From a virus (Duplodnaviria > Heunggongvirae > Uroviricota > Caudoviricetes): a DNA stretch of 9,704 nucleotides. Location: the IMG/VR virus record IMGVR_UViG_2541047165_000024; one strand, 5' to 3'. Shown in pieces: positions 1-9,704 of the stretch; positions within the stretch are counted from its first letter, which is position 1, and each line of letters begins with the position of its first letter. A program made the position numbers and the translations under genes. The notes under the pieces are model-generated. The model was given only the letters and a program-made list of their open reading frames with translations. It was not told the origin of the DNA and made no database searches.

Positions 1-1131
1 TCAAATGACCAGTTTTTTCCATTCCTTACCGCGTGCGTCGTTGTAAATATCGGTCATTTTTTGATTCGAATGGCCTAGCAAAATTTTGGTATCAACCCCC
101 TGCTCTCTGAACAATCGCTCTGATAAAGATCTCTGCTCATGGAAAGAGGGAGGGGTGCCATTAGCACGCCAGTTGTAATCCACAGAATCCCGGGCTTTTT
201 TAAATGCAACGGTTAATGTTGCTGGCTTAACCATCCCGCCGCGCTTAGCTGTCCCTTTCGCGTGATGGTGGTGCAATAGCCACGGACTAAGAACGCAATC
301 GCGGCAGGATGACACCACATCATCCAGGGTGAGATTTAATTTATCGCAACGCAGAGCCAGAGGGATGGCAATCCGGGTTCCTGTTTTTTGCTGTTCGACA
401 TGAAGATAACCATCCCGGATATCCGAAAATTGCATTTTGCAAATATCTGAAAGGCGCTGGCCTGTCATCAGTGCCAGCAGCATACCGCGCTGTAAAAAGT
501 AACCATCCTTTTCCGCTGCGTTATAAATCATCATCCACTCATCAAAAGTCAGTCGCTGTCTTGATATCCGCACCTGCGGTTTTTTTGCCGATTCTGCAGG
601 GTTAAAGCCTGGCGGGACATCGCCCGTTTGCTGAGCTTCCCGGAAAACATCGATCAGTACTTTCCTGAAAATTTGTCCCATTCTGTTATGTCCTCTGGCC
701 TTGTACTCTTCCAGTACTGATACCACATCTTTTACGGTTATGGCATCTAACGGTCTGGTGCCAAAACGTTCATCAAATACCCTGAGAGGGGCCGCTTTCT
801 GTTTCAGCGTGTTGAGTTTGATCTCGCCGTTTTCATATCTTTCCTGTTGAATTTTTCTGTAATTATTCAGAAAAATGGTAACGGTTGATGAACCGCCGGT
901 ATCACTAATAATTTTCTCCTGCAGACTGAGCATTTGTTCCATTTGCTGCCGGGCAAGACGGCTGTTCGCTTCTGCTGCAATAGTTTCTGCCAGTTTCTGG
1001 TCAATACTGCCGAGACCGTGATTTTTGCCTGTTATGGGATGCCTGTAACGCCAGTAAACTTTGTTATTTCTTTTGTCAAAATACGGAGATAATCCCGGAA
1101 CATCGGTTTTATATTTTCGCGGGCGCGCCAT
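1..1131 (-). CDS. int: Tyrosine-type site-specific integrase (phage integrase family), complete 376 aa
   Basis: Full-length minus-strand ORF whose stop codon is at bases 1-3. The C-terminal region has the catalytic-domain architecture typical of tyrosine recombinases (…LLGHSNQKMTDIYNDARG…). Its start overlaps the upstream xis-like ORF, the classical xis-int arrangement. Family assignment is from recalled motifs, not a search. Confidence 0.93.
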   Translation of the reverse strand: MARPRKYKTDVPGLSPYFDKRNNKVYWRYRHPITGKNHGLGSIDQKLAETIAAEANSRLARQQMEQMLSLQEKIISDTGGSSTVTIFLNNYRKIQQERYENGEIKLNTLKQKAAPLRVFDERFGTRPLDAITVKDVVSVLEEYKARGHNRMGQIFRKVLIDVFREAQQTGDVPPGFNPAESAKKPQVRISRQRLTFDEWMMIYNAAEKDGYFLQRGMLLALMTGQRLSDICKMQFSDIRDGYLHVEQQKTGTRIAIPLALRCDKLNLTLDDVVSSCRDCVLSPWLLHHHHAKGTAKRGGMVKPATLTVAFKKARDSVDYNWRANGTPPSFHEQRSLSERLFREQGVDTKILLGHSNQKMTDIYNDARGKEWKKLVI

Positions 1132-1357
1132 CTTCCAGTATCCTCTTCAAAGCAGGGTGATCTGTGGCGATCACCTCCGGCTTGTTTACCATTCCGACAA
1201 AGCGAGCTTGCGGATCCACTCGCCAGCGTCTTCCAACTTTTTTGGGGAGAGGAAATATCATTCCGGCTTTAGCGTATTTACTTAACGTACTCGGAGTTGG
1301 GACCGGTTCACTGAATTCCTCTTTTGCCCACTCAGTGAGCAGAATAAGTCTTGCCAT
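1109..1357 (-). CDS. xis: Excisionase-like small DNA-binding protein (Xis/AlpA-type)
   Basis: An 82-aa basic ORF immediately upstream of int on the same strand, overlapping the int start by 23 nt. Position and size fit a lambdoid excisionase. The exact start codon was not verified. Confidence 0.75.
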   Translation of the reverse strand: MARLILLTEWAKEEFSEPVPTPSTLSKYAKAGMIFPLPKKVGRRWRVDPQARFVGMVNKPEVIATDHPALKRILEDGAPAKI

Positions 1358-1421
1358 GAGCGTCGTTCGCTAATCATGGTCGCCGCCACTATAGCTGGTG
1401 GGCAACGACCGGGGTTGAACA

Positions 1422-1859
1422 TTAAAAATCAGCCTGATTCGGGATCAGTTTTTGCCAGATAACTGAAACGTATTTTGCCTGGTAACGGGCGTCATCAAGT
1501 GCATTATGGCGCTCACCTTCGAATGGAATAGCCGTTCTGGCATCGAAGTCTATGGCTTTCCCCAGCTCAACGATTGTGCGTACATCGCGATCGTTGTAGT
1601 AACGCCACGGGCAGGGGATCCCCTGCCGTTCGTATGAACGGCGCAAAATCGTGTTGTCGAAGTTGGCTCCATTTCCCCAGACCTGAACAAAAAATTCACC
1701 GGAGTTTTCGTCGATAAATTCCCGCAATTGTAACAGTGCATCATCTAACGGGATTTCATCGGTCATAATGGCAGATTGCGCTTCGCGTGATTGCTTAAGC
1801 CACCATTTAATGGTGTCCCTCGCCGTGTGCTTTCGTGTTGTGTGCCTGCTTTTTACCAC
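1422..1859 (-). CDS. DEDDh (DnaQ-like) 3'-5' exonuclease domain protein, apparently 5'-truncated (possible pseudogene or remnant)
   Basis: The translation contains an Exo II-like motif (VWGNGANFDNTIL) and an Exo III-like motif (HNALDDARYQAKY). No Exo I D-x-E motif is present. The frame opens with GTG at 1859, and translating upstream hits a stop after about 15 unrelated codons (around 1905-1907). The catalytic N-terminus therefore looks replaced by unrelated sequence. Confidence 0.65.
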   Translation of the reverse strand: MVKSRHTTRKHTARDTIKWWLKQSREAQSAIMTDEIPLDDALLQLREFIDENSGEFFVQVWGNGANFDNTILRRSYERQGIPCPWRYYNDRDVRTIVELGKAIDFDARTAIPFEGERHNALDDARYQAKYVSVIWQKLIPNQADF

Positions 1860-1883
1860 GTCAGGCGAGGTGGTCCCCGTTAT

Positions 1884-1929
1884 TCCCCAACAACAAGGAT
1901 CTTGTTAATCTGGATATCCCCAACAACAA
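1884..1929. repeat. Two direct copies of TCCCCAACAACAA spaced 33 bp apart, in the junction/promoter region upstream of the accessory ORF
   Basis: Read directly from the sequence: the 13-mer occurs at about 1884-1896 and 1917-1929. It sits between the truncated exonuclease and the divergent plus-strand ORF. Any function (regulator binding site or recombination scar) is inference. Confidence 0.6.
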
Positions 1930-1943
1930 TAAGAGTATTGAAT

Positions 1944-2459
1944 GTGATCGCTGAATTAACGGCAGCAATGACGGCTATTCGTGAAACCGCCCAGATTGCA
2001 AAACTAATGAACGAGGCAAAAACTCAAGCTGAAGTAAATGCGGCTATTGGTGAACTGAACTCAAAGCTTGCATCTATTCAGCGCGAATGCGTGTCTCTCG
2101 TTGAGCTGGTGGGCACTTATCAAGAAATAAATGCTTCTCTCAAAGCTAAAATTGCAGAATTTGAAAACTTTGAGGCTCAGACGGAAGGTTATATCCTTAG
2201 CCAACTTGAGTCGGGAACTTTTGTGTACTCGAAGGAGGTAACCGTGAACGGCGGCAGCATAATCATGCATCTTTGTCCAAAATGTTTTGGACAAAAGATA
2301 GTATCGATACTTCAGCCATTCCCGGTTAGAGAATATGAATTTTTTCATAAAAGCAGGTGCCTGTACTGTGAAAATCAGTTTCTTATGAATAAAAATCCGG
2401 ATTACGTATCACCTCCATCTATTGAAGAGTTGGCCAGAAAACTGAACGGCAATCTGTAG
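1944..2459 (+). CDS. Uncharacterised coiled-coil plus Cys4 zinc-ribbon protein (about 171 aa), candidate accessory or defence moron
   Basis: The long plus-strand ORF ends at TAG 2457-2459. The track's 1791 start overlaps the exonuclease gene and gives an implausible N-terminus. More plausible starts are GTG 1944 (preceded by AAGAG), TTG 1938 or ATG 1968. The N-terminal half is heptad-like and low in complexity (…AKLMNEAKTQAEVNAAIGELNSKLASIQRE…LKAKIAEFENFEAQ…). The C-terminal half carries CPKC and CLYC motifs about 25 residues apart. Codon composition is visibly AT-richer than the flanking genes, judged by eye and not computed. I recognise no named family. Confidence 0.6.
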   Translation: MIAELTAAMTAIRETAQIAKLMNEAKTQAEVNAAIGELNSKLASIQRECVSLVELVGTYQEINASLKAKIAEFENFEAQTEGYILSQLESGTFVYSKEVTVNGGSIIMHLCPKCFGQKIVSILQPFPVREYEFFHKSRCLYCENQFLMNKNPDYVSPPSIEELARKLNGNL

Positions 2460-2496
2460 ATTTTTACTGTTATGGATATCCAGATTGTTAAAGAGC

Positions 2497-2523
2497 ATGC
2501 CGGATGCTTGCTTGTGTCCGGCG
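2497..2523. terminator. Hairpin (GCCGGA-N12-TCCGGC) between convergent genes, a possible weak bidirectional terminator
   Basis: Inverted repeat at about 2499-2504 and 2517-2522, in the 114-bp gap between the plus-strand ORF (ends 2459) and the minus-strand small ORF (ends 2574). On the minus strand it is followed by AUGCUCUUU. There is no strong U-tract, so this is a weak call. Confidence 0.3.
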
Positions 2524-2573
2524 CGTGTGCACCACTCTCCCCCCGTGGAGGATTCCTTAATTACCAGATTTCA

Positions 2574-2804
2574 TTAGTCAGAGTTTCTTGCTAACCAGCG
2601 ACGCGCGCCAGATTCGGTTTTAAACGTTTTGCTTTTGGTATACGTCATCGCGGTGAACGTGCCGTCCTGGTTGGGAAACACGCCGCACACCAGAGATTCG
2701 TTGTTGCCAAGATCAAGAGTATCCATGCTGACCTCATATCCCCTTAACGCCGGGGTAGCGGAACAAAAACCTGCTGCATAGTTAAAGTTGAACCCTGCCG
2801 TCAT
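2574..2804 (-). CDS. Small hypothetical protein (76 aa), first gene downstream of the leftward pL-like promoter
   Basis: Minus-strand ORF with ATG at 2802-2804, preceded by GAGG about 9 nt upstream. It lies about 95 nt downstream of a near-consensus sigma-70 promoter that is overlapped by operator palindromes. It has no arginine-rich N-terminus, so it is not N-like. Function unknown. Confidence 0.5.
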   Translation of the reverse strand: MTAGFNFNYAAGFCSATPALRGYEVSMDTLDLGNNESLVCGVFPNQDGTFTAMTYTKSKTFKTESGARRWLARNSD

Positions 2805-2899
2805 GTTCTTACGCCTCGGGCTGGCTACTTAATCCCTGACCACTGCCGGGTAACTCTAGGTATTGCCCTGTATTGTGTGGGACGGGATGGGTTGGTATG

Positions 2900-2950
2900 G
2901 GAAAACTATAGGAAATGCCTAATTGCTTGTCAATAGGCTACGCCTAATGA
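2900..2950 (-). promoter_or_regulatory. Leftward pL-like promoter (-35 TTGACA, 17-bp spacer, -10 TATAGT) with overlapping operator sites (OL)
   Basis: On the minus strand the sequence reads TTAGGCgtaGCCTATTGACA-agcaattaggcatttcc-TATAGT. The -35 is at plus 2928-2933 and the -10 at 2905-2910. One operator palindrome abuts the -35 (about 2932-2947). A second TTAGGC half-site pair lies across the spacer and -10 (about 2908-2922). The layout is a mirror image of the cassette on the other side of the repressor gene. Confidence 0.6.
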
Positions 2951-3005
2951 TTTGGGTGCGACCTAATAGGTGATGGTTTGTGGGAGAGGTAGTAGGAGTT
3001 AACTA

Positions 3006-3027
3006 ACGGGAACTAGGAATTTCCCGT
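3006..3027 (-). terminator. Hairpin (ACGGGAA-N8-TTCCCGT) just downstream of the repressor stop, a candidate terminator or insulator
   Basis: Inverted repeat at 3006-3012 and 3021-3027, directly after the repressor stop (3042-3044) on the minus strand. The trailing sequence is only moderately U-rich (UAGUUAACU). Confidence 0.3.
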
Positions 3028-3041
3028 CGGACCATATAAGT

Positions 3042-3518
3042 TTAAGTTCCTGTCTTGGTGATGTTCTGGCTTTTCCGTTTTGATTCTTGATTTTTCAGAT
3101 AGTTAGCTACCTTCATTTCCATTGCGGCAATGTAGGCACGAACGTCATGATCAACCCAACTAGGCTCCGTAGCATTTCCAGATAAGAGGAAAGCCACAAT
3201 TGCTCTTTTTTCATCAGAGGCGGCTTGATAAAGGCTGTTTATGTCTAAAAGTTCACTTTTTGTATCTGAAGTGGATGGGGTTGGTATGGGGTATTCGTTA
3301 AGCCCCCAATGCTCTGGACCAACCACATCAGAAAAGAAACGCCATAGTTCTGGAAGTTTGTCTTTACTTATCGAACCTTTCTTAATCCAGTCATGGATTG
3401 ATGGTGGTTGGACTTTGAAATGACGTGCGATTTCCGCCTTTGATTTGACGGCTCCTGATGCAATTTTTTTGTTAATGGCCTGCTCTATCGCTCGGCCTAA
3501 GTCTTTACCACTAAGCAT
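3042..3518 (-). CDS. racR: Prophage immunity repressor, HTH (XRE/CI-like) without a LexA-type peptidase domain; RacR-like
   Basis: 158-aa ORF with an N-terminal HTH region (…KSKAEIARHFKVQPPSIHDWIKKGSISKDKLPELW…) and an AGGAGA RBS. It is divergent from a Cro-like gene and flanked on both sides by operator-bearing promoters. Size and context match the RacR position of Rac-type prophages. The symbol is given as a family-level analogy only. Confidence 0.85.
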   Translation of the reverse strand: MLSGKDLGRAIEQAINKKIASGAVKSKAEIARHFKVQPPSIHDWIKKGSISKDKLPELWRFFSDVVGPEHWGLNEYPIPTPSTSDTKSELLDINSLYQAASDEKRAIVAFLLSGNATEPSWVDHDVRAYIAAMEMKVANYLKNQESKRKSQNITKTGT

Positions 3519-3544
3519 TGCTTAATAGTCTCCTATGCGCATCG

Positions 3545-3616
3545 CATTAGGCAATACCTACTCTCGAAGCGTTAGGCATAGCCTATTGACAGTTGCATTA
3601 GGCTAAGCCTAATATT
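3545..3616 (+). promoter_or_regulatory. Rightward pR-like promoter (-35 TTGACA 3586-3591, -10 TAATAT about 3610-3615) with three operator-like palindromes (OR)
   Basis: Operators read from the sequence: TTAGGCaatACCTAC (about 3547-3561), TTAGGCataGCCTAT (3572-3586, abutting the -35) and the near-perfect TTAGGCtaaGCCTAA (3598-3612, overlapping the -10). This is a classical tripartite operator over divergent promoters. Confidence 0.65.
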
Positions 3617-3642
3617 ATTGTGTGTTTTTTGGAGTTCATTCG

Positions 3643-3966
3643 ATGAAAAAAGATAACTATTCATTCAAACGAGCTTGTGCTGTTGTCGGTGGGCAATCAG
3701 CAATGGCTAGGCTTTTAGGTGTATCTCCTCCAAGCGTAAATCAATGGATCAAAGGTGTACGTCAGTTGCCTGCTGAGAGATGTCCTGCGATTGAACGAGC
3801 AACAAAAGGTGGTGTCCTGTGTGAAGAACTTCGTCCTGATGTTGATTGGACATACTTACGACGCTCGTCATGTTATTCGCAGAATATGTCGATGAAGCAA
3901 CCAAATGACGAAAACGATCATACCCGAAGCATCAAGAGGCAAATGATTCATGAAAATCAAACATGA
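3643..3966 (+). CDS. ydaS: Cro-like HTH regulator of the YdaS type
   Basis: ATG at 3643 with GGAG 8 nt upstream. The track's GTG at 3622 gives an unlikely extension. The HTH region (…ACAVVGGQSAMARLLGVSPPSVNQWIKGVRQLPAERCPAIE…) is typical of Cro/YdaS-like proteins encoded divergently from the repressor. Confidence 0.8.
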   Translation: MKKDNYSFKRACAVVGGQSAMARLLGVSPPSVNQWIKGVRQLPAERCPAIERATKGGVLCEELRPDVDWTYLRRSSCYSQNMSMKQPNDENDHTRSIKRQMIHENQT

Positions 3967-4375
3967 GCACATCCGCATGGCGATGAATGCCTGGGCATAT
4001 CCTGATGGTGAGAAAGTTCCTGCAGCTGAAATAGCCCGGACTTATTTCGAACTGGGGATGACGTTCCCGGAACTGTACGACGACAGCCATCCGGAAGCCC
4101 TGGCTCGTAATACCCAGAAAATTTTCCGTTGGCTGGATAAAGACACCCCTGATGCTGTTGAAAAAATGCAGGCTCTGTTACCGGCGATCGAAAAGGCAAT
4201 GCCGCCTCTGCTGGTGGCCCGTATGCGCAGTCACAGCTCTGAATATTACCGTGAGATCGTCGAACGGAGGGATCGGCTGGTGAAAGATGTGGATGATTTT
4301 GTCGCAGCGGCGATCGCCTGGGGCACCCTGACTAACAGTGGGGGTCAGCCTGGTAATGCTGTTGTCGTGCATTGA
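3950..4375 (+). CDS. ydaT: YdaT-like protein (prophage toxin-like, repressor-controlled)
   Basis: 141-aa ORF overlapping the end of the ydaS-like gene by 17 nt, so probably translationally coupled. The N-terminus MKIKHEHI… and the position directly after the cro-like gene match the YdaT family of Rac-like prophages. Assignment is from recall, not a search. Confidence 0.78.
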   Translation: MKIKHEHIRMAMNAWAYPDGEKVPAAEIARTYFELGMTFPELYDDSHPEALARNTQKIFRWLDKDTPDAVEKMQALLPAIEKAMPPLLVARMRSHSSEYYREIVERRDRLVKDVDDFVAAAIAWGTLTNSGGQPGNAVVVH

Positions 4376-4437
4376 CCAACAATATTCATGCCGGATTTCT
4401 TCCGGATGTTCGAGGGTAAAGTTCGGTATCAGATGAG

Positions 4438-5481
4438 GTGAGTATGGCTAATGCCTGGCTCAGATTGTGGCATGACATGCCAAATGATCCCAAATGGCGA
4501 ACCATTGCCAGGGTCTCAGGACAGCCAATCGCAACAGTGATGGCGGTGTATATCCACCTTCTGGTGAGTGCGTCACGAAATGTCACGAAATGTCACGGCG
4601 AGTCACTACGTGGTCACATTGATGTCACGACGGAAGATTTAGCAAGTGCGCTTGATGTGACGGAAGACGTGATTGATTCAATTTTGCATGCAATGCAGGG
4701 GCGAGTTCTGGATGGCGATCTTATTTCCGGATGGGAAAAACGCCAGGTGATGAAGGAGGATAACGGTAATGTTTCGCAAACCGCAAAATCCCCGGCAGAG
4801 CGCAAGAGAGCGCAGCGGGAGCGGGAAAGACTGCGGGAGCAGAACACTGATTGTCACGATGAGTCACGACGCGTCACGCATATGTCACGACAAGTCACGA
4901 CAGATACAGATACAGATAAAGAATTAAACCCCACACATAACGCGCGCATGCGCGAGAGTGCTCCAGCCAGTGAGTCGAATGGCGCGCCGTTGCAGACAGC
5001 AGAACCTGAATACCCGGATGGCCTGAGCGAACCGATCGGGAAATTTCCGATGACTGGTGTCTGGCGGCCGTCGCTGGATTTTCGACAGCGGGCTGCATTG
5101 TGGGGTATGGCTCTGCCTGAGCCTGAGTTTACACCTGCTGAGCTTGCCGCATTCCGGGATTACTGGATGGCGGAGGGGAAGGTTTTCACGCAGGTTCAGT
5201 GGGAGCAGAAATTTGCCCGTCACGTGCAGCACGTCAGGGCACAGGTAAAACCAGTCAGCAAGGGGGTAAGCCATGCAGCACCAGGTGGCACCGCATCACG
5301 GGCAGTTCAGGAAATTCGGGCAGCACGTGAACAGTGGGAACGTGAAAACGGATTTATCAGCAACGGAAACGGCCTGGAAGCTGTGGGAACTTATGGGGGA
5401 GGTGTATTCGAACCGCTGGACCCAGAAGAACGGGGCTGCGCCGTCGAAGCTCTGGATTGCTCAGATTGGCGCGATGACTGA
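4438..5481 (+). CDS. Replication initiation protein (lambda O-like functional analogue or replisome organiser) with embedded origin iterons
   Basis: 347-aa ORF; the start is GTG 4438 or ATG 4444 after GAGGTG. It lies immediately upstream of a lambda P-like gene. The coding sequence contains two clusters of GTCAC repeats at helical spacing, the hallmark of an ori inside an O-type gene. Confidence 0.8.
   Translation: MSMANAWLRLWHDMPNDPKWRTIARVSGQPIATVMAVYIHLLVSASRNVTKCHGESLRGHIDVTTEDLASALDVTEDVIDSILHAMQGRVLDGDLISGWEKRQVMKEDNGNVSQTAKSPAERKRAQRERERLREQNTDCHDESRRVTHMSRQVTTDTDTDKELNPTHNARMRESAPASESNGAPLQTAEPEYPDGLSEPIGKFPMTGVWRPSLDFRQRAALWGMALPEPEFTPAELAAFRDYWMAEGKVFTQVQWEQKFARHVQHVRAQVKPVSKGVSHAAPGGTASRAVQEIRAAREQWERENGFISNGNGLEAVGTYGGGVFEPLDPEERGCAVEALDCSDWRDD
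4572..4628. repeat. Iteron cluster 1: six GTCAC(G) repeats at 10-11 bp spacing (putative ori component)
   Basis: GTCAC occurs at about 4572, 4582, 4592, 4602, 4613 and 4624, read directly from the sequence. Confidence 0.75.
4853..4918. repeat. Iteron cluster 2: five GTCACGA repeats at 10-11 bp spacing, followed by (ACAGAT)x3 and an A/T-rich stretch (putative ori core)
   Basis: GTCACGA occurs at about 4853, 4863, 4873, 4884 and 4894. It is followed by cagatacagatacagataaagaattaaa. Confidence 0.75.
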
Positions 5482-5935
5482 ACAGCAAATCCGGCAGGTC
5501 TGCCGTCAGTGCATGGACCGCTGCCGGGCGGGTGAAACGTGGCCTCCGGACCTGGCTGAGTTTGTGGCGTTGATTTCGGAGAGCGGGGCAAATCCATTTG
5601 GCCTGACGGTGGATGCCGTGATGGAGGAGTACCGTCGCTGGAGGAATGAATCCTGGCGGTACGACGGGAGTGATAAATACCCGTGGCCACAGCCGGTGCT
5701 GTACCACATTTGCCTCGAGATGCGTGACAGAGGGATTGAGCGGCAGATGACGGAAGGTGAGTTAAAACGACTTGCAGAACGGCAACTGACGAAATGGGCA
5801 AAGCAAGTTGGTAACGGGATGAGTATTCCCCCGATCCGGAGACAACTCGCATCGCCGAAGTGCCCGCAAGGGCCAACGCCAATTGAATTACTGAAACAGG
5901 AATACGAGCGCCGGAAGGCGGCTGGTTTTGTTTGA
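5273..5935 (+). CDS. Lambda P-like replication protein (helicase loader)
   Basis: ATG at 5273 is preceded by a strong AAGGGGG SD. The C-terminal half aligns by eye with lambda P (ours: WPPDLAEFVALI…DKYPWPQPVLYHI…MTEGELKRLAERQL; lambda P: LPSPGQFVAWC…ESYPWKSNAHYWL…LTDAELRRKAADEL). It overlaps the 3' end of the O-like ORF by about 209 nt in another frame. Confidence 0.8.
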   Translation: MQHQVAPHHGQFRKFGQHVNSGNVKTDLSATETAWKLWELMGEVYSNRWTQKNGAAPSKLWIAQIGAMTEQQIRQVCRQCMDRCRAGETWPPDLAEFVALISESGANPFGLTVDAVMEEYRRWRNESWRYDGSDKYPWPQPVLYHICLEMRDRGIERQMTEGELKRLAERQLTKWAKQVGNGMSIPPIRRQLASPKCPQGPTPIELLKQEYERRKAAGFV

Positions 5936-5968
5936 ATCTGAGAAACGATTTTGTCGGAGGAAATTTTA

Positions 5969-6685
5969 ATGGAAACCGTATCTGACGCACTGAAAGCACT
6001 GAAAAGAGCCTCTTCACATGTGGTGGCAGCTCGCCTTGGAATTAGTCGTGAAGAGGCTGTCAACGAACTGTGGAAACTGAAACGCCGTGGAGAAGCGGAT
6101 AACAAGGGGGCGATATGGTGGCTGACTCAGGCTGGTGAAAGTGAACCGGTGTCACCGGTACCGAAAGTGACGGCGCAAATGCTGACAGAGGCGATTGAAC
6201 AACATGGCCCACAAACGGCGGATGAACTGGCATTGATGTTCGGAATTACCTCCCGCCGGGCGAATTCATCGCTGGCAATGGCAATCAGCAAAGGGTGTCT
6301 GATTCGCGTGAATCAGGATGGTAAATTTCGTTACTGCATACCGGGCGTTGATTTACCGGCAGAGCCGAAAGCAGCATCCGTAGCTGAAACGGAGGGTAAA
6401 GCCCTTCCTCAGCCAGCTGGTGTTGCGTTACCAGTCCAGGAAACGGCTGCACAGGAAGAAATTAAAACAGAAGCGGTGGAGGACATTGTGAAGTTGCAGC
6501 AATCGTTCACTGAAGCGAAAGCAGATGACCTGATTCTACCATCGCTGCATGTGGCTAACCGCGAGCTGCGCCGGGCGAAAAGTAATGTTCAGAAGTGGGA
6601 GCGAGTCTGTGCTGCGCTACGGGAACTGAACAAACACAGGGATATTCTCCGGGATATTACCGCCACCAGAGAGCAGCAGCGGTGA
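5969..6685 (+). CDS. Hypothetical protein with two winged-helix-like repeats
   Basis: ATG at 5969 with GGAGG 8 nt upstream; the track's TTG at 5951 is unlikely. Two internal segments resemble each other (…[23 protein letters not shown]… and …[31 protein letters not shown]…). No Walker motifs are present. Confidence 0.65.
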
Positions 6686-6999
6686 GTGGCTGGAAGAAGT
6701 GGCGCTGGGCTGAAATCCTGATACTCCGGCAGTGTGCGGGAACGATGAGAGTCGAAAGCATCGGTTATCTGATTGGCCGTAGTGAGTCAGCCGTCAGGAC
6801 GAAAGCGCGGGAACTGGGTATCAGCATGATGTTACGGGGTGATTATCACCAGTCAGCCAAATGTTCACAGCGTGATATTGAGCTGGCGTGGCAACTGCAT
6901 CAGCGTGGTGTACCCCGACGGGAAATTGCCGAAAAGTTTGGGATGAAGTTGGGCGCAGTGAATAACTACGTTTATTTCGACAGGAGGGTTCAGGAGTGA
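6682..6999 (+). CDS. Small hypothetical protein with two HTH-like segments (possible DNA-binding)
   Basis: A GTG start at 6682 overlaps the upstream stop (GTGA), giving about 105 aa. The track's ATG at 6595 lies inside the upstream gene. The start choice is inference. Confidence 0.5.
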
Positions 7000-7298
7000 G
7001 GGTGAGGGTTTATATCGCCGGTCCGATGACGGGATATGAAAATTTTAACCGCGAGGCATTTCACAAAACGGAAGAGGTGCTGAAACGGGAAGGGCATACC
7101 GTTTTAAACCCGGCAGTACTTCCGGACGGGCTGACTCAGCCACACTACATGGATATTTGCATGGCAATGCTCCGTTGCGTGGATGCGGTTTACATGCTGA
7201 AAGGCTGGCAGCAGTCGGCAGGTGCAGGGGCTGAGCTGGCACTGGAGGAGAAACCGGGCCATGCGGTGATTTTTCAGGAGGTGGGCAGTGAATATTGA
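6996..7298 (+). CDS. DUF4406-like (nucleoside 2-deoxyribosyltransferase-like fold) protein
   Basis: N-terminal motif VYIAGPMTG…NFNREAF…VLNP, typical of this Rossmann-like family common in prophages. GTG start with GGAGGG upstream. Confidence 0.72.
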   Translation: MRVRVYIAGPMTGYENFNREAFHKTEEVLKREGHTVLNPAVLPDGLTQPHYMDICMAMLRCVDAVYMLKGWQQSAGAGAELALEEKPGHAVIFQEVGSEY

Positions 7299-7605
7299 CC
7301 CGGCGATAACGATTGATATGGCCCTGAACGCCGGCCTGGCACTTCTTGGTTATTTCTACATTATGTTCTGCAGCGGACGATGGCTGTCACTGTTGTTCAT
7401 GAAAAAATGGAATAAACGCCGTAAGCAGGAGCAACGCCAGAAGGCAATGGATGCATTTTTCGAAGCCTTCGGAATTGACGGCATGGAACCAGGGGATCCA
7501 GCTCGCGCAATCAGCAGAGGGGGTGTAGTAATCCTTGTATATCGGAGTGAAGAGAAAAATGACGATCACAAAACAACGTGTAGAAGAAATCATATCCCGC
7601 ATTGA
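7288..7605 (+). CDS. Small predicted membrane protein (single hydrophobic helix followed by a basic stretch)
   Basis: GTG at 7288 with AGGAGG 6 nt upstream. Hydrophobic segment ALNAGLALLGYFYIMFCSGRWLSLLF followed by KKWNKRRKQEQRQK. The 3' end overlaps the next ORF, so the true extent is uncertain. Confidence 0.45.
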   Translation: MNIDPAITIDMALNAGLALLGYFYIMFCSGRWLSLLFMKKWNKRRKQEQRQKAMDAFFEAFGIDGMEPGDPARAISRGGVVILVYRSEEKNDDHKTTCRRNHIPH

Positions 7606-7876
7606 AATGTATGGACATGGTGCAGGGTATATCGCAGACGAGGTTAATGATCTGGCTATACTGGCGCTGAATTTATCAAATATCGCGAACCTGAAGCGAT
7701 ACGAGCTTGATATGGGAGGTTGCGACTCGTGCGGTCAGGATTGTGGCGCTGATATGACTGAAGATCCTGATGGTGATTATGTCCTGTTTGATGACGTGGT
7801 TAAGTTGTTTGAATTTGATACAACCACTCAAAAGTTAGAAATCCCGGCAAAGGAGGCAGCCAGTGGGCAAGATTGA
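7559..7876 (+). CDS. Hypothetical phage protein with an acidic C-terminus
   Basis: ATG at 7559 after GAAGAG; the track's TTG at 7535 is less likely. No recognisable motif. Confidence 0.55.
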   Translation: MTITKQRVEEIISRIEMYGHGAGYIADEVNDLAILALNLSNIANLKRYELDMGGCDSCGQDCGADMTEDPDGDYVLFDDVVKLFEFDTTTQKLEIPAKEAASGQD

Positions 7877-8300
7877 CTATCAGGCACTGCGTGAGGCAGC
7901 ACAAAACTATCAATCGACGCTGGCGTGGTATCAGGCTACCCCGGACAGCCCAAATGCTGAACGGGATTGTGATGCGGCTCTTGCTGCGTTTAAGCGTCAC
8001 ATCCGTCATCGGGAAGCGGATATTATCGCTGATTTGCTGGATGGACTGGAAGAAGCAAAATCACAACTCAACGAGCAGCGTGAGTATTACGAAGGCGTTA
8101 TCTCTGATGGGAGCAAGCGTATTGCTGAACTGGAAGCGCGGGAAGTTCAATTACCGACTCGCTACGACCTTCGATATGGACACCCGATAAATGCAGATGA
8201 GCGACATGTCATGATACCTAAAGAAAATGGCAGTTGGCTTTACCTGATTGACCTAGAACACGCATTACGCGTCGCTGGCATTCGCATCAAAGGAGAGTGA
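7863..8300 (+). CDS. Hypothetical coiled-coil phage protein (Ea22-region-like)
   Basis: GTG at 7863 with AAGGAGG 6 nt upstream. It overlaps the upstream stop and is tightly packed with its neighbours. Confidence 0.65.
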   Translation: MGKIDYQALREAAQNYQSTLAWYQATPDSPNAERDCDAALAAFKRHIRHREADIIADLLDGLEEAKSQLNEQREYYEGVISDGSKRIAELEAREVQLPTRYDLRYGHPINADERHVMIPKENGSWLYLIDLEHALRVAGIRIKGE

Positions 8301-8301
8301 G

Positions 8302-8493
8302 ATGAACGGACAAATATCAATTGTTCGACCAGGAGCATGTGACGATCGCGAAATACGAATGATTATTCGTCTGGCGATGGGGAAAACAATAACTGCTCTC
8401 ATTACTCCAGAAAATCTCGCATTAGCATTAACAGGAAAGTCAGACATGCCAGTAGAGCTAAAGCTGCGAAATGTTGAGATTAAGGTGAAATAG
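8302..8493 (+). CDS. Small hypothetical phage protein (63 aa)
   Basis: ATG at 8302 with AGGAG 6 nt upstream, 1 nt after the previous stop. Confidence 0.6.
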   Translation: MNGQISIVRPGACDDREIRMIIRLAMGKTITALITPENLALALTGKSDMPVELKLRNVEIKVK

Positions 8494-8495
8494 CT

Positions 8496-9083
8496 ATGAC
8501 CACTATTACCAAAGATCGACTGCTGACAATCCAGCATTGGCGCGAAACATACGGACCGGGTAGCAACGTTGTGCTTCCAGCAGAAGAAGCGGAAGAGCTG
8601 GCACGGATTGCGCTGGCATCACTGGCAGCAGTATCGGATGAACGAGCAGCCTATGAATTATTTATGGAGAAGCGTTTCGGAGAATCTGTAGATCGCCGCA
8701 GAGCAAAAAATGGCGATAGAGATTACATGGTATGGGATATGGCGCTTGGCTGGATTATCTGGTGTCACCGCGCCGCCATGCTTCAGGCTGGAAACTTTCG
8801 GGAAAATAAGGGTTCGTCAACCAATAATTTTCGGGAAATCTCGGAAACGTCAACCAACTATCCGGTAACTCCGGATGGTTGGATAAGCTGTAGTGAGCGA
8901 ATGCCGGATGATGGTCAGCACGTAATTATTTTATGTGATGGCGCATTCGTTCTTTATGCGCAATATCGAGACGGTGAGTTTTTTGATGTAGTCCGTAATG
9001 GTGATGAATTTTTCGAAACACAGAGCCGCAATGTAACCGACTGGATGCCGCTACCAGAACCGCCGCAGGAGGTGCGCCAATGA
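8496..9083 (+). CDS. DUF551-domain phage protein
   Basis: The C-terminus carries the characteristic DUF551-type motif (…WISCSERMPDDGQHVIIL…NVTDWMPLPEPP). ATG at 8496 with AAGGTG upstream. Confidence 0.75.
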   Translation: MTTITKDRLLTIQHWRETYGPGSNVVLPAEEAEELARIALASLAAVSDERAAYELFMEKRFGESVDRRRAKNGDRDYMVWDMALGWIIWCHRAAMLQAGNFRENKGSSTNNFREISETSTNYPVTPDGWISCSERMPDDGQHVIILCDGAFVLYAQYRDGEFFDVVRNGDEFFETQSRNVTDWMPLPEPPQEVRQ

Positions 9084-9163
9084 TCTGGCCTGAAGCCTTT
9101 GCAATTACAGGCGTTGCTATAGCTATTGATTTTTTAGTATATGTTATTTGTCGGTGGGGGTAA
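9080..9163 (+). CDS. Putative 27-aa hydrophobic peptide (MIWPEAFAITGVAIAIDFLVYVICRWG)
   Basis: Not in the ORF track because it is under 60 aa. ATG at 9080 overlaps the upstream stop (ATGA) and has AGGAGG 7 nt upstream. Predicted single transmembrane helix. Confidence 0.35.
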   Translation: MIWPEAFAITGVAIAIDFLVYVICRWG

Positions 9164-9198
9164 AAACGTTCGCCGGGATTCACACCAAAGGAGGGAAT

Positions 9199-9303
9199 AT
9201 GTCGGATGATATTTCACTGGCAATGGAAGGTGCGCTGGCTGTTATTGCTGTTGTGGGCGTTTACTGCCTGGTTGTGTTTTTGATGGATCGACTAGGGAAC
9301 TGA
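9199..9303 (+). CDS. Putative 34-aa hydrophobic peptide (MSDDISLAMEGALAVIAVVGVYCLVVFLMDRLGN)
   Basis: ATG at 9199 preceded by AAGGAGGG; stop TGA at 9301-9303. Predicted single transmembrane helix. Too short for the ORF track. Confidence 0.4.
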   Translation: MSDDISLAMEGALAVIAVVGVYCLVVFLMDRLGN

Positions 9304-9311
9304 ATTCATTA

Positions 9312-9333
9312 CGATATGGGAATTCCCATATCG
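9312..9333. repeat. Perfect 22-bp palindrome CGATATGGGAATTCCCATATCG
   Basis: Read directly from the sequence. It lies 9 bp after the stop of the 34-aa peptide ORF and upstream of the hok leader. It is not followed by a T-tract. Function unknown; it may be a protein-binding site or an RNA hairpin. Confidence 0.7.
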
Positions 9334-9434
9334 GGTAAAAACGGTTTGCGGTAAAGCGAGAGTTAAGTAGAATTGCTGCGGGTGCTTGAGGCTGTCTGCC
9401 TCGGGCATGCCACCGTAAGGTAGACAGAGAAAAG

Positions 9435-9505
9435 CCCCAGTTAACATTACGCGTCCTGCAAGACGCCTAACATTAATCTGAGGCCAATTTCATGCTAGAC
9501 ACATG
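9435..9505 (-). ncRNA. sok: Predicted sok-like antisense RNA of the hok locus
   Basis: This is inference. A candidate minus-strand promoter (-35 TTGCCT at plus 9530-9535, 17-bp spacer, weak -10 TAACCT at 9507-9512) would start a transcript near 9500. That transcript would be antisense to the mok SD (GAGG about 9480-9483) and start codon (9492), as in hok/sok loci. The 3' end and terminator were not identified. Confidence 0.3.
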
Positions 9506-9704
9506 TAGGTTAGCCTCTTACGCGCCGAAAGGCAAGGAGAAGCAGGCTATGAAGCAGCAAAAGGCGATGTTAATCGCCCTGATCGTCATCTGTATCACCG
9601 TCATAGTGACGGCACTGGTAACGAGGAAAGACCTCTGCGAGGTACGAATCCGAACCGGCCAGACGGAGGTCGCTGTCTTCACAGCTTACGAACCTGAGGA
9701 GTAA
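9492..9704 (+). CDS. mok: mok-like reading frame (in-frame N-terminal extension overlapping hok)
   Basis: ATG at 9492 with GAGG 8 nt upstream. It reads in frame through hok to the same stop, consistent with the mok/hok arrangement in which mok translation is coupled to hok expression. Confidence 0.65.
   Translation: MLDTCRLASYAPKGKEKQAMKQQKAMLIALIVICITVIVTALVTRKDLCEVRIRTGQTEVAVFTAYEPEE
9549..9704 (+). CDS. hok: Hok/Gef family type I toxin (HokD/RelF-like), 51 aa
   Basis: Translation MKQQKAMLIALIVICITVIVTALVTRKDLCEVRIRTGQTEVAVFTAYEPEE is unmistakably Hok/Gef family. ATG at 9549 with AAGGAGA 8 nt upstream. The stop TAA is the last codon of the window. Confidence 0.92.
   Translation: MKQQKAMLIALIVICITVIVTALVTRKDLCEVRIRTGQTEVAVFTAYEPEE

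Follow-up and report, generated by a model that had tools for sequence, protein, structure and literature searches.

Seven prophages of Escherichia coli O157:H7 Sakai, Sp6 among them, were described by Asadulghani et al. (2009; PMC2669165) as carrying an Exo VIII-type recombination system, intact in Sp10 only; Sp6 is marked 'D' for general recombination in the table of that paper. The Sp6 gene is annotated in Sakai as ECs_1503, a 114-aa "exodeoxyribonuclease VIII", and is listed by PGAP as a pseudogene, "3'-5' exonuclease; incomplete; missing N-terminus", in strains EDL933 (EDL933_RS08260) and TR01 (EEL45_RS07305). The nearest known systems besides this one are the 823-aa prophage exonuclease (WP_000048416, WP_000048551; phrog_2082; the gene of phage PPompW is similar to ECO26_1771), the Rv2179c-like family of DEDDh nucleases (PF16473; solved structure 8kel), and RecE of the Rac prophage. 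No experimental characterisation of the 823-aa exonuclease was found, nor any literature on Rv2179c combined with prophage.

The stretch of DNA analysed here (the window; 9,704 nucleotides, IMG/VR virus record IMGVR_UViG_2541047165_000024) carries a remnant of the 823-aa exonuclease gene. The remnant is already known and is a case of ordinary prophage decay; in Sp6 it bears a pseudogene annotation. The Sp6 pseudogene has the same junction as the window, and its DNA is 99.9-100% identical to window 1413-9704. The two differ to the left of the remnant, where Sp6 has the integrase and excisionase of the potC site and the window those of the ompW site; positions 1-1412 are of the ompW type, 100% identical to the ompW prophages of O157:H7 strain TR01 (L008) and PPompW_EH2246 (L004). 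The 823-aa exonuclease of ompW prophages has the same xis-int neighbours as the window, and its 3' end is 99.8-100% identical to window 1422-1819; the N-terminal region, the RecE-like centre, the Cys-rich segment, and Exo I of that protein are lacking in the window. Of the DEDDh family, the remnant conserves Exo II, Exo III, and the C-terminal two thirds of the domain; it lacks Exo I and the start of the fold profile, and is therefore not an intact member. The central region of the full-length parent is homologous to the middle of RecE, and older annotations as well as PMC2669165 speak of an 'Exo VIII-type' enzyme; the C-terminal domain of the parent is of the DEDDh family instead, and the remnant in the window has no RecE-like part at all.

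The remnant lies in a GTG-started ORF on the minus strand (window 1422-1859; 145 aa), the sole Pfam match of which is the Rv2179c-like 3'-5' exoribonuclease domain (PF16473, E=1.2e-46). Residues 6-135 of the ORF align with profile positions 47-177 of 177, so that 131 of the 177 positions are covered and positions 1-46, which carry Exo I, are missing; the parent covers positions 2-177. This truncation signal is far beyond chance. Exo II (NGANFD) conforms to N-x2-3-F/Y-D with its conserved aspartate, and Exo III (HNALDD) to H-x4-D; the D-x-E expected close to the domain N-terminus is absent from the ORF, the corresponding MIDLETMG of the parent belonging to the deleted part. The ORF matches positions 685-823 alone of the 823-position family phrog_2082, and is thus not a full-length member; phrog_8783 (114 positions) matches ORF aa 32-145, i.e., from an internal Met, its length being that of the Sakai call. 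Matches in the phage collection share aa 14-145 alone, as part of far longer genes. The RecE equivalog NF007259 (NCBIfam) had no match in the remnant.

A preliminary description, made from the letters of the window, had recognised an exonuclease with Exo II and Exo III and without Exo I, had placed a stop about 15 codons 5' of the GTG in sequence unrelated to exonucleases, and had concluded that the 5' end of the gene was lost by a DNA rearrangement. All of this was borne out; the in-frame TAA lies exactly 15 codons upstream. That description had named an overlooked upstream D-x-E segment, or a full-length family naturally devoid of Exo I, as grounds on which it would fall: no such segment was found in the six frames of the window (tblastn with a full-length 823-aa relative, of which the C-terminal part alone matched), and no such family was found.

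The intact parent gene (2,472 bp, 823 aa) directly adjoins xis and int; the copies examined were those of strain M1/5 (L003, WP_000048416), O157:H7 TR01 (L008, WP_000048551), and phage PPompW (L004). The protein of M1/5 (L003 6001-8472, minus strand) is a composite of an N-terminus without Pfam match, a RecE-like centre, a Cys-rich segment (CTACG...CPDCG), and a DEDDh domain at the C-terminus, where RecE is annotated as another type of nuclease. Residues 642-813 form the DEDDh domain (Pfam profile positions 2-177, E=2.2e-67), and phrog_2082 is matched end to end (1-823) by the M1/5 protein. Exo I of the parent (MIDLETMG, residues 644-651, including D646 and E648) aligns with IIDFETMG of the solved exodeoxyribonuclease 8kel, and lies 41 residues before R692, the residue at the junction. 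Homology to the non-catalytic middle of RecE extends over residues 447-625 (NF007259 positions 440-602), with 279 bits in this central region alone against a curated cut-off of 1269 bits, so that the parent is not a RecE/exodeoxyribonuclease VIII equivalog; the old name "exodeoxyribonuclease VIII" is due to this homology. The gene is very common in E. coli prophages, matches to the fragment being present in about 4,100 of 5,426 complete genomes. The window keeps residues 692-823 and has lost 691 of the 823 codons (84%), and not approximately 50 codons of a gene of approximately 200 aa.

The end of homology to the parent is sharp (Table 1). Window 1-1819 is 100% identical to PPompW_EH2246, with a collapse to random-level identity from 1820; the M1/5 copy is 99.8% identical up to exactly 1819; and in about 3,800 genomes homology is lost at exactly query position 130, which corresponds to window 1819. 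The junction, which can be placed to within 0-2 bp, thus falls 40 bp into the ORF and is straddled by codon 14 (Arg, AGG). Because homology to every full-length copy ends at this position, the first 13 codons (MVKSRHTTRKHTA) are foreign to the exonuclease gene, in DNA as well as in protein alignments. Alignment to full-length exonucleases and related prophages, as the preliminary description had proposed, therefore upheld the truncation and moved the breakpoint from the 1860-1905 given there to 1819/1820, inside the ORF. Microhomology at the junction is 0 bp relative to the potC-site prophages of strains JNE131328 (L005) and AJ1 (L007), and 2 bp (CC) relative to the TR01 ompW prophage; no mobile element is present at 1819/1820. 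A similarity of the form ATTTAA(T/C)G, 7-14 bp left of the junction and farther upstream of the endpoint in the right-hand parents, was regarded as chance.

Just right of the junction lies a 33-nt element (window 1843-1874) of which 97% identical copies are found in PPompW-type prophages (L008 11803-11835; L004 1988-2020), about 4 kb further in and directly 5' of ydfC. It may represent a conserved sequence of the leftward operon, either at a module boundary or with a regulatory role.

Table 1 Features of the left part of the window. Positions are those of the window; the strand is left empty for junctions and shared segments.
Feature	Position	Strand	Details
Integrase, ompW-type module	1-1131	-	ORF and annotation of ompW prophages
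Excisionase, ompW-type module	1109-1357	-	Pfam Exc E=1.3e-7; 100% identical to xis of O157 TR01 ompW prophage
Segment shared by ompW-type and Sp6-type (potC) prophages	1413-1819		407 bp; join of the two parents within 1439-1733
Exonuclease gene remnant	1422-1819	-	Stop codon and parent codons 692-823; C-terminal two thirds of DEDDh (Rv2179c-like) domain
Exo III HNALDD (H-x4-D)	1491-1508	-	ORF aa 118-123, parent aa 796-801; aligned with full-length copies
Exo II NGANFD	1656-1673	-	ORF aa 63-68, parent aa 741-746; aligned with full-length copies
Junction of the proposed deletion	1819-1820		Left parent (exonuclease) goes on GATC... past 1819; right parents (spacer 5' of dicB) unrelated before 1820
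ORF codons 1-13 and one base	1820-1859	-	From non-coding spacer 5' of dicB; collinear with L005 5001-5040 and L007 5001-5040
Open codons and TAA	1860-1907	-	15 codons, in-frame TAA at 1905-1907 5' of the GTG; spacer DNA
Accessory ORF, 171 aa	1944-2459	+	PGAP CDS coordinates transferred from L002; phrog_1244 (unknown function) E=1e-57
DUF1391 (ydfA-like) gene	2574-2804	-	Pfam PF07151 E=6.6e-30; first gene of leftward early operon; PGAP shorter, 2574-2726
PL-like sigma-70 promoter match	2905-2933	-	TTGACA-17-TATAGT, 11/12 consensus; consensus match alone

The two potC-site prophages named above served as intact comparators. Both have the order int, xis, full-length exonuclease (814 aa in L005, 823 aa in L007), DUF1482 (ydfD-like), dicB, a spacer of about 400 bp, the accessory ORF on the plus strand, and further leftward genes including DUF1391. 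The window aligns with the JNE131328 prophage in two collinear blocks, window 1413-1819 with L005 1676-2082 and window 1820-2897 with L005 5001-6078; the interval absent from the window (L005 2083-5000) holds the 5' part of the exonuclease gene, DUF1482, dicB, and the spacer. The AJ1 prophage gives the same two-block pattern, and both relatives start matching at exactly 1820. The missing interval measures 2918 bp relative to L005, 2943 bp relative to L007, and 2952 bp relative to the PPompW-type prophage of TR01, in which an 18-bp match (L008 10772-10789) puts the right endpoint 5' of dicB. Elsewhere in the window, tblastn found no further part of the exonuclease and no dicB or ydfD.

We consider the ORF to be a pseudogene remnant left by a single illegitimate deletion of about 2.9 kb, a reading to which we assign a probability of about 0.9. 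Near-identity to the window on both flanks of the junction was seen in no relative: L005 has 87% identity left of it and 94-97% right of it, and PPompW, at 100% on the left, departs from the window about 20 bp beyond it. We therefore infer the single step from collinearity with intact relatives within a mosaic family rather than see it in a direct ancestor. That ancestor would have been a lambdoid prophage of the Rac/Qin-like immunity type (racR-ydaS-ydaT), with a leftward early operon of the order PL, DUF1391, accessory ORF (opposite strand), spacer, dicB, DUF1482/ydfD, 823-aa exonuclease, xis, int. One illegitimate event with 0-2 bp of microhomology would then have joined the spacer 5' of dicB to exonuclease codon 692, removing dicB, the ydfD-like gene, exonuclease codons 1-691 with D646 and E648, and about 400 bp of spacer, and leaving 132 DEDDh codons fused by chance to 13 open spacer codons that start with GTG. 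DicB is annotated as a cell-division inhibitor, and the products of dicB and of the ydfD-like gene are toxic; their loss might have been of selective benefit to the lysogen.

The preliminary description had taken the junction for the left boundary of a replacement that removed the 5' end of the gene, probably together with the rest of a recombination module, and introduced the accessory ORF from another source. Such a cassette exchange is what a comparison restricted to PPompW-type prophages suggests: these prophages (L003, L004, L008) have a different plus-strand gene in the slot of the accessory ORF, and window 1820-2580 has almost no match to them, so that the region looks replaced. The potC-site comparators tell against it, since in both of them this accessory ORF, identically placed and oriented, stands beside an intact exonuclease, DUF1482, and dicB, and a single gap interrupts an otherwise collinear alignment of the window with them. 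The first 18-20 bp beyond the junction also occur upstream of dicB in the PPompW-type prophage of TR01, so that the boundary of the accessory slot, which lies right of the deletion endpoint, is a separate and older mosaic boundary. As to a lost recombination module, no recT/bet-like partner gene is present in the intact relatives examined, and what was co-deleted is the ydfD-like DUF1482 gene and dicB. We regard an exchange of cassettes as very unlikely.

The small RNA DicF (77 bits) is found 5' of dicB in the ompW prophage of M1/5 (L003 9116-9167, minus strand); it is below the Rfam gathering score in L005, L007, L008, and the window, and absent from L005 at E<=1 as well. DicF thus appears to be variably present in this prophage family.

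The identical junction, CCACCATTTAATGGTGTCCC joined to TCGCCGTGTGC, is present as an uninterrupted 100% match in 267 of 5,426 complete E. coli genomes and in 3 IMG/VR contigs; the junction-bearing genomes, among the matches listed, are O157:H7 or O157 strains with an Sp6 prophage. The 145-codon frame is accordingly kept open in hundreds of genomes, which carries little weight because these genomes are near-identical over the remnant stretch.

Two observations favour a functional short protein of 145 aa, or of 114 aa from Met32, such as an inactive binding module or a naturally short exonuclease: the open frame, which Sakai annotates as a 114-aa CDS, and the 114-position family phrog_8783 matching aa 32-145. 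Set against them are the loss of Exo I and of the first 46 positions of the fold profile, an N-terminus of 13 spacer-derived codons, and the pseudogene call of PGAP. No Shine-Dalgarno-like sequence was seen before the GTG at 1859 or the internal ATG at 1766 when the sequence was read directly, and aa 14-145 are shared by phage matches solely within much longer genes. A working short protein is, in our judgement, highly improbable. In DEDDh enzymes the Asp and Glu of Exo I are two of the four metal ligands, and mutation of either leads to loss of activity. With both residues and the start of the profile gone, and no recognisable ribosome-binding site, no DEDDh exonuclease action is predicted; the fragment most likely does nothing, and probably does not fold.

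The promoter match listed in Table 1 sits between the racR-like repressor gene and DUF1391 and points through DUF1391, the remnant, xis, and int; it is likely to be the PL of the prophage. Judged from this match to the consensus, the remnant is probably transcribed merely as a spacer between PL and xis-int.

The window as a whole combines two prophages. Window 1-1819 equals the ompW prophage of TR01 except at position 1734, and window 1413-9704 equals the Sp6-like prophage of the same strain (L009) except at position 1438; the diagnostic bases are T at 1438 (ompW-type) and C at 1734 (Sp6-type). The two TR01 prophages have only the 407-bp remnant in common, with 99.5% identity. The SNPs together with the extent of sharing therefore place a crossover, or an assembly mis-join, within 1439-1733. 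A sharp module boundary is seen at 1412/1413, 9 bp downstream of the exonuclease stop codon: to its left the ompW-type and potC-type int-xis cassettes are unrelated, and to its right all exonuclease alleles align.

In TR01 the two parents have the same orientation and are about 192 kb apart, and the join of an ompW int-xis module to an Sp6 body would be the outcome expected of unequal crossover (tandem duplication) or of an excised circle. The arrangement as one piece is absent from complete E. coli genomes and from the phage collection, and the combination of the ompW-type xis flank with the junction within about 410 bp had no matches in IMG/VR, JGI metagenomes, or GTDB representative genomes. 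Alternatively, this arrangement may be the older one, as PPompW of O145 matches 1-1819 at 100%, including C at 1734. Prophages at ompW and elsewhere are reported to recombine with one another (PMC8112680). Three origins of the window are conceivable: a genuine recombination between prophages, a duplication junction, or a mis-join in assembly. We put forward only tentatively, as somewhat less probable than its opposite, that the dead 407-bp remnant, to which the live gene of a co-resident ompW prophage is still 99.5% identical, acted as a recombination hinge: a crossover within 1439-1733 would have equipped the Sp6 body (immunity, replication, Rip1-like gene, hok/sok) with a new integrase-excisionase module, yielding either a real hybrid prophage or the junction of a duplication of about 192 kb.

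That the 1819/1820 junction is itself a by-product of this two-prophage join, recent or made in assembly, and not an inherited deletion has a negligible probability: the window is indeed a two-parent mosaic of an arrangement absent from all collections searched, but the join lies within 1439-1733 and the junction is unchanged in the 267 genomes and 3 contigs, which have a different int-xis module, so that it is older than, and independent of, the mosaic join.

The accessory ORF beside the remnant had no significant Pfam, NCBIfam, or PADLOC match; the search of solved structures alone (phmmer) gave Rip1, ring interacting pore 1 (PDB 9oox_L, E=3.6e-7), aa 14-150 aligning with 28-159 of 164. The alignment spans most of the length, and both C-terminal Cys pairs are conserved (CPKC with CAQC; CLYC with CHRC). 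Rip1 is a single protein encoded by prophages; it assembles into a pore around small-terminase or portal rings of phages and causes premature lysis, and its relatives are widespread in proteobacterial prophages (2026 review, PMC13434031). The accessory ORF resembles it distantly but over nearly the full length, and is likewise prophage-borne; Rip1 of Pseudomonas lies between terminase genes, whereas the accessory ORF belongs to the early-left region, beside the repressor. The ORF is also present in L005, L007, and L006, the last being an unrelated prophage type in which it lies beside a LexA-like repressor. From this similarity, it is probably an anti-phage defence gene of the Rip1 family. At the other end of the window (9380-9704, plus strand) there is a hok/sok type I toxin-antitoxin module, with an Rfam sok match at 9380-9554 (114 bits, E=1e-25) and a hokD CDS (9549-9704) that ends exactly at the window edge.

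The correct label for the 145-aa ORF is pseudogene fragment of the 823-aa exonuclease gene; names such as short exonuclease, "exodeoxyribonuclease VIII", and novel enzyme without Exo I do not apply, and beyond its correct annotation the remnant matters little. A domain-level reading can spot such a truncation and yet miss its scale about tenfold, and its mechanism, if the architecture of the parent is unfamiliar. Short pseudogene remnants of this kind, shared by co-resident prophages of O157:H7, offer sites at which prophages can recombine or assemblies can be mis-joined.
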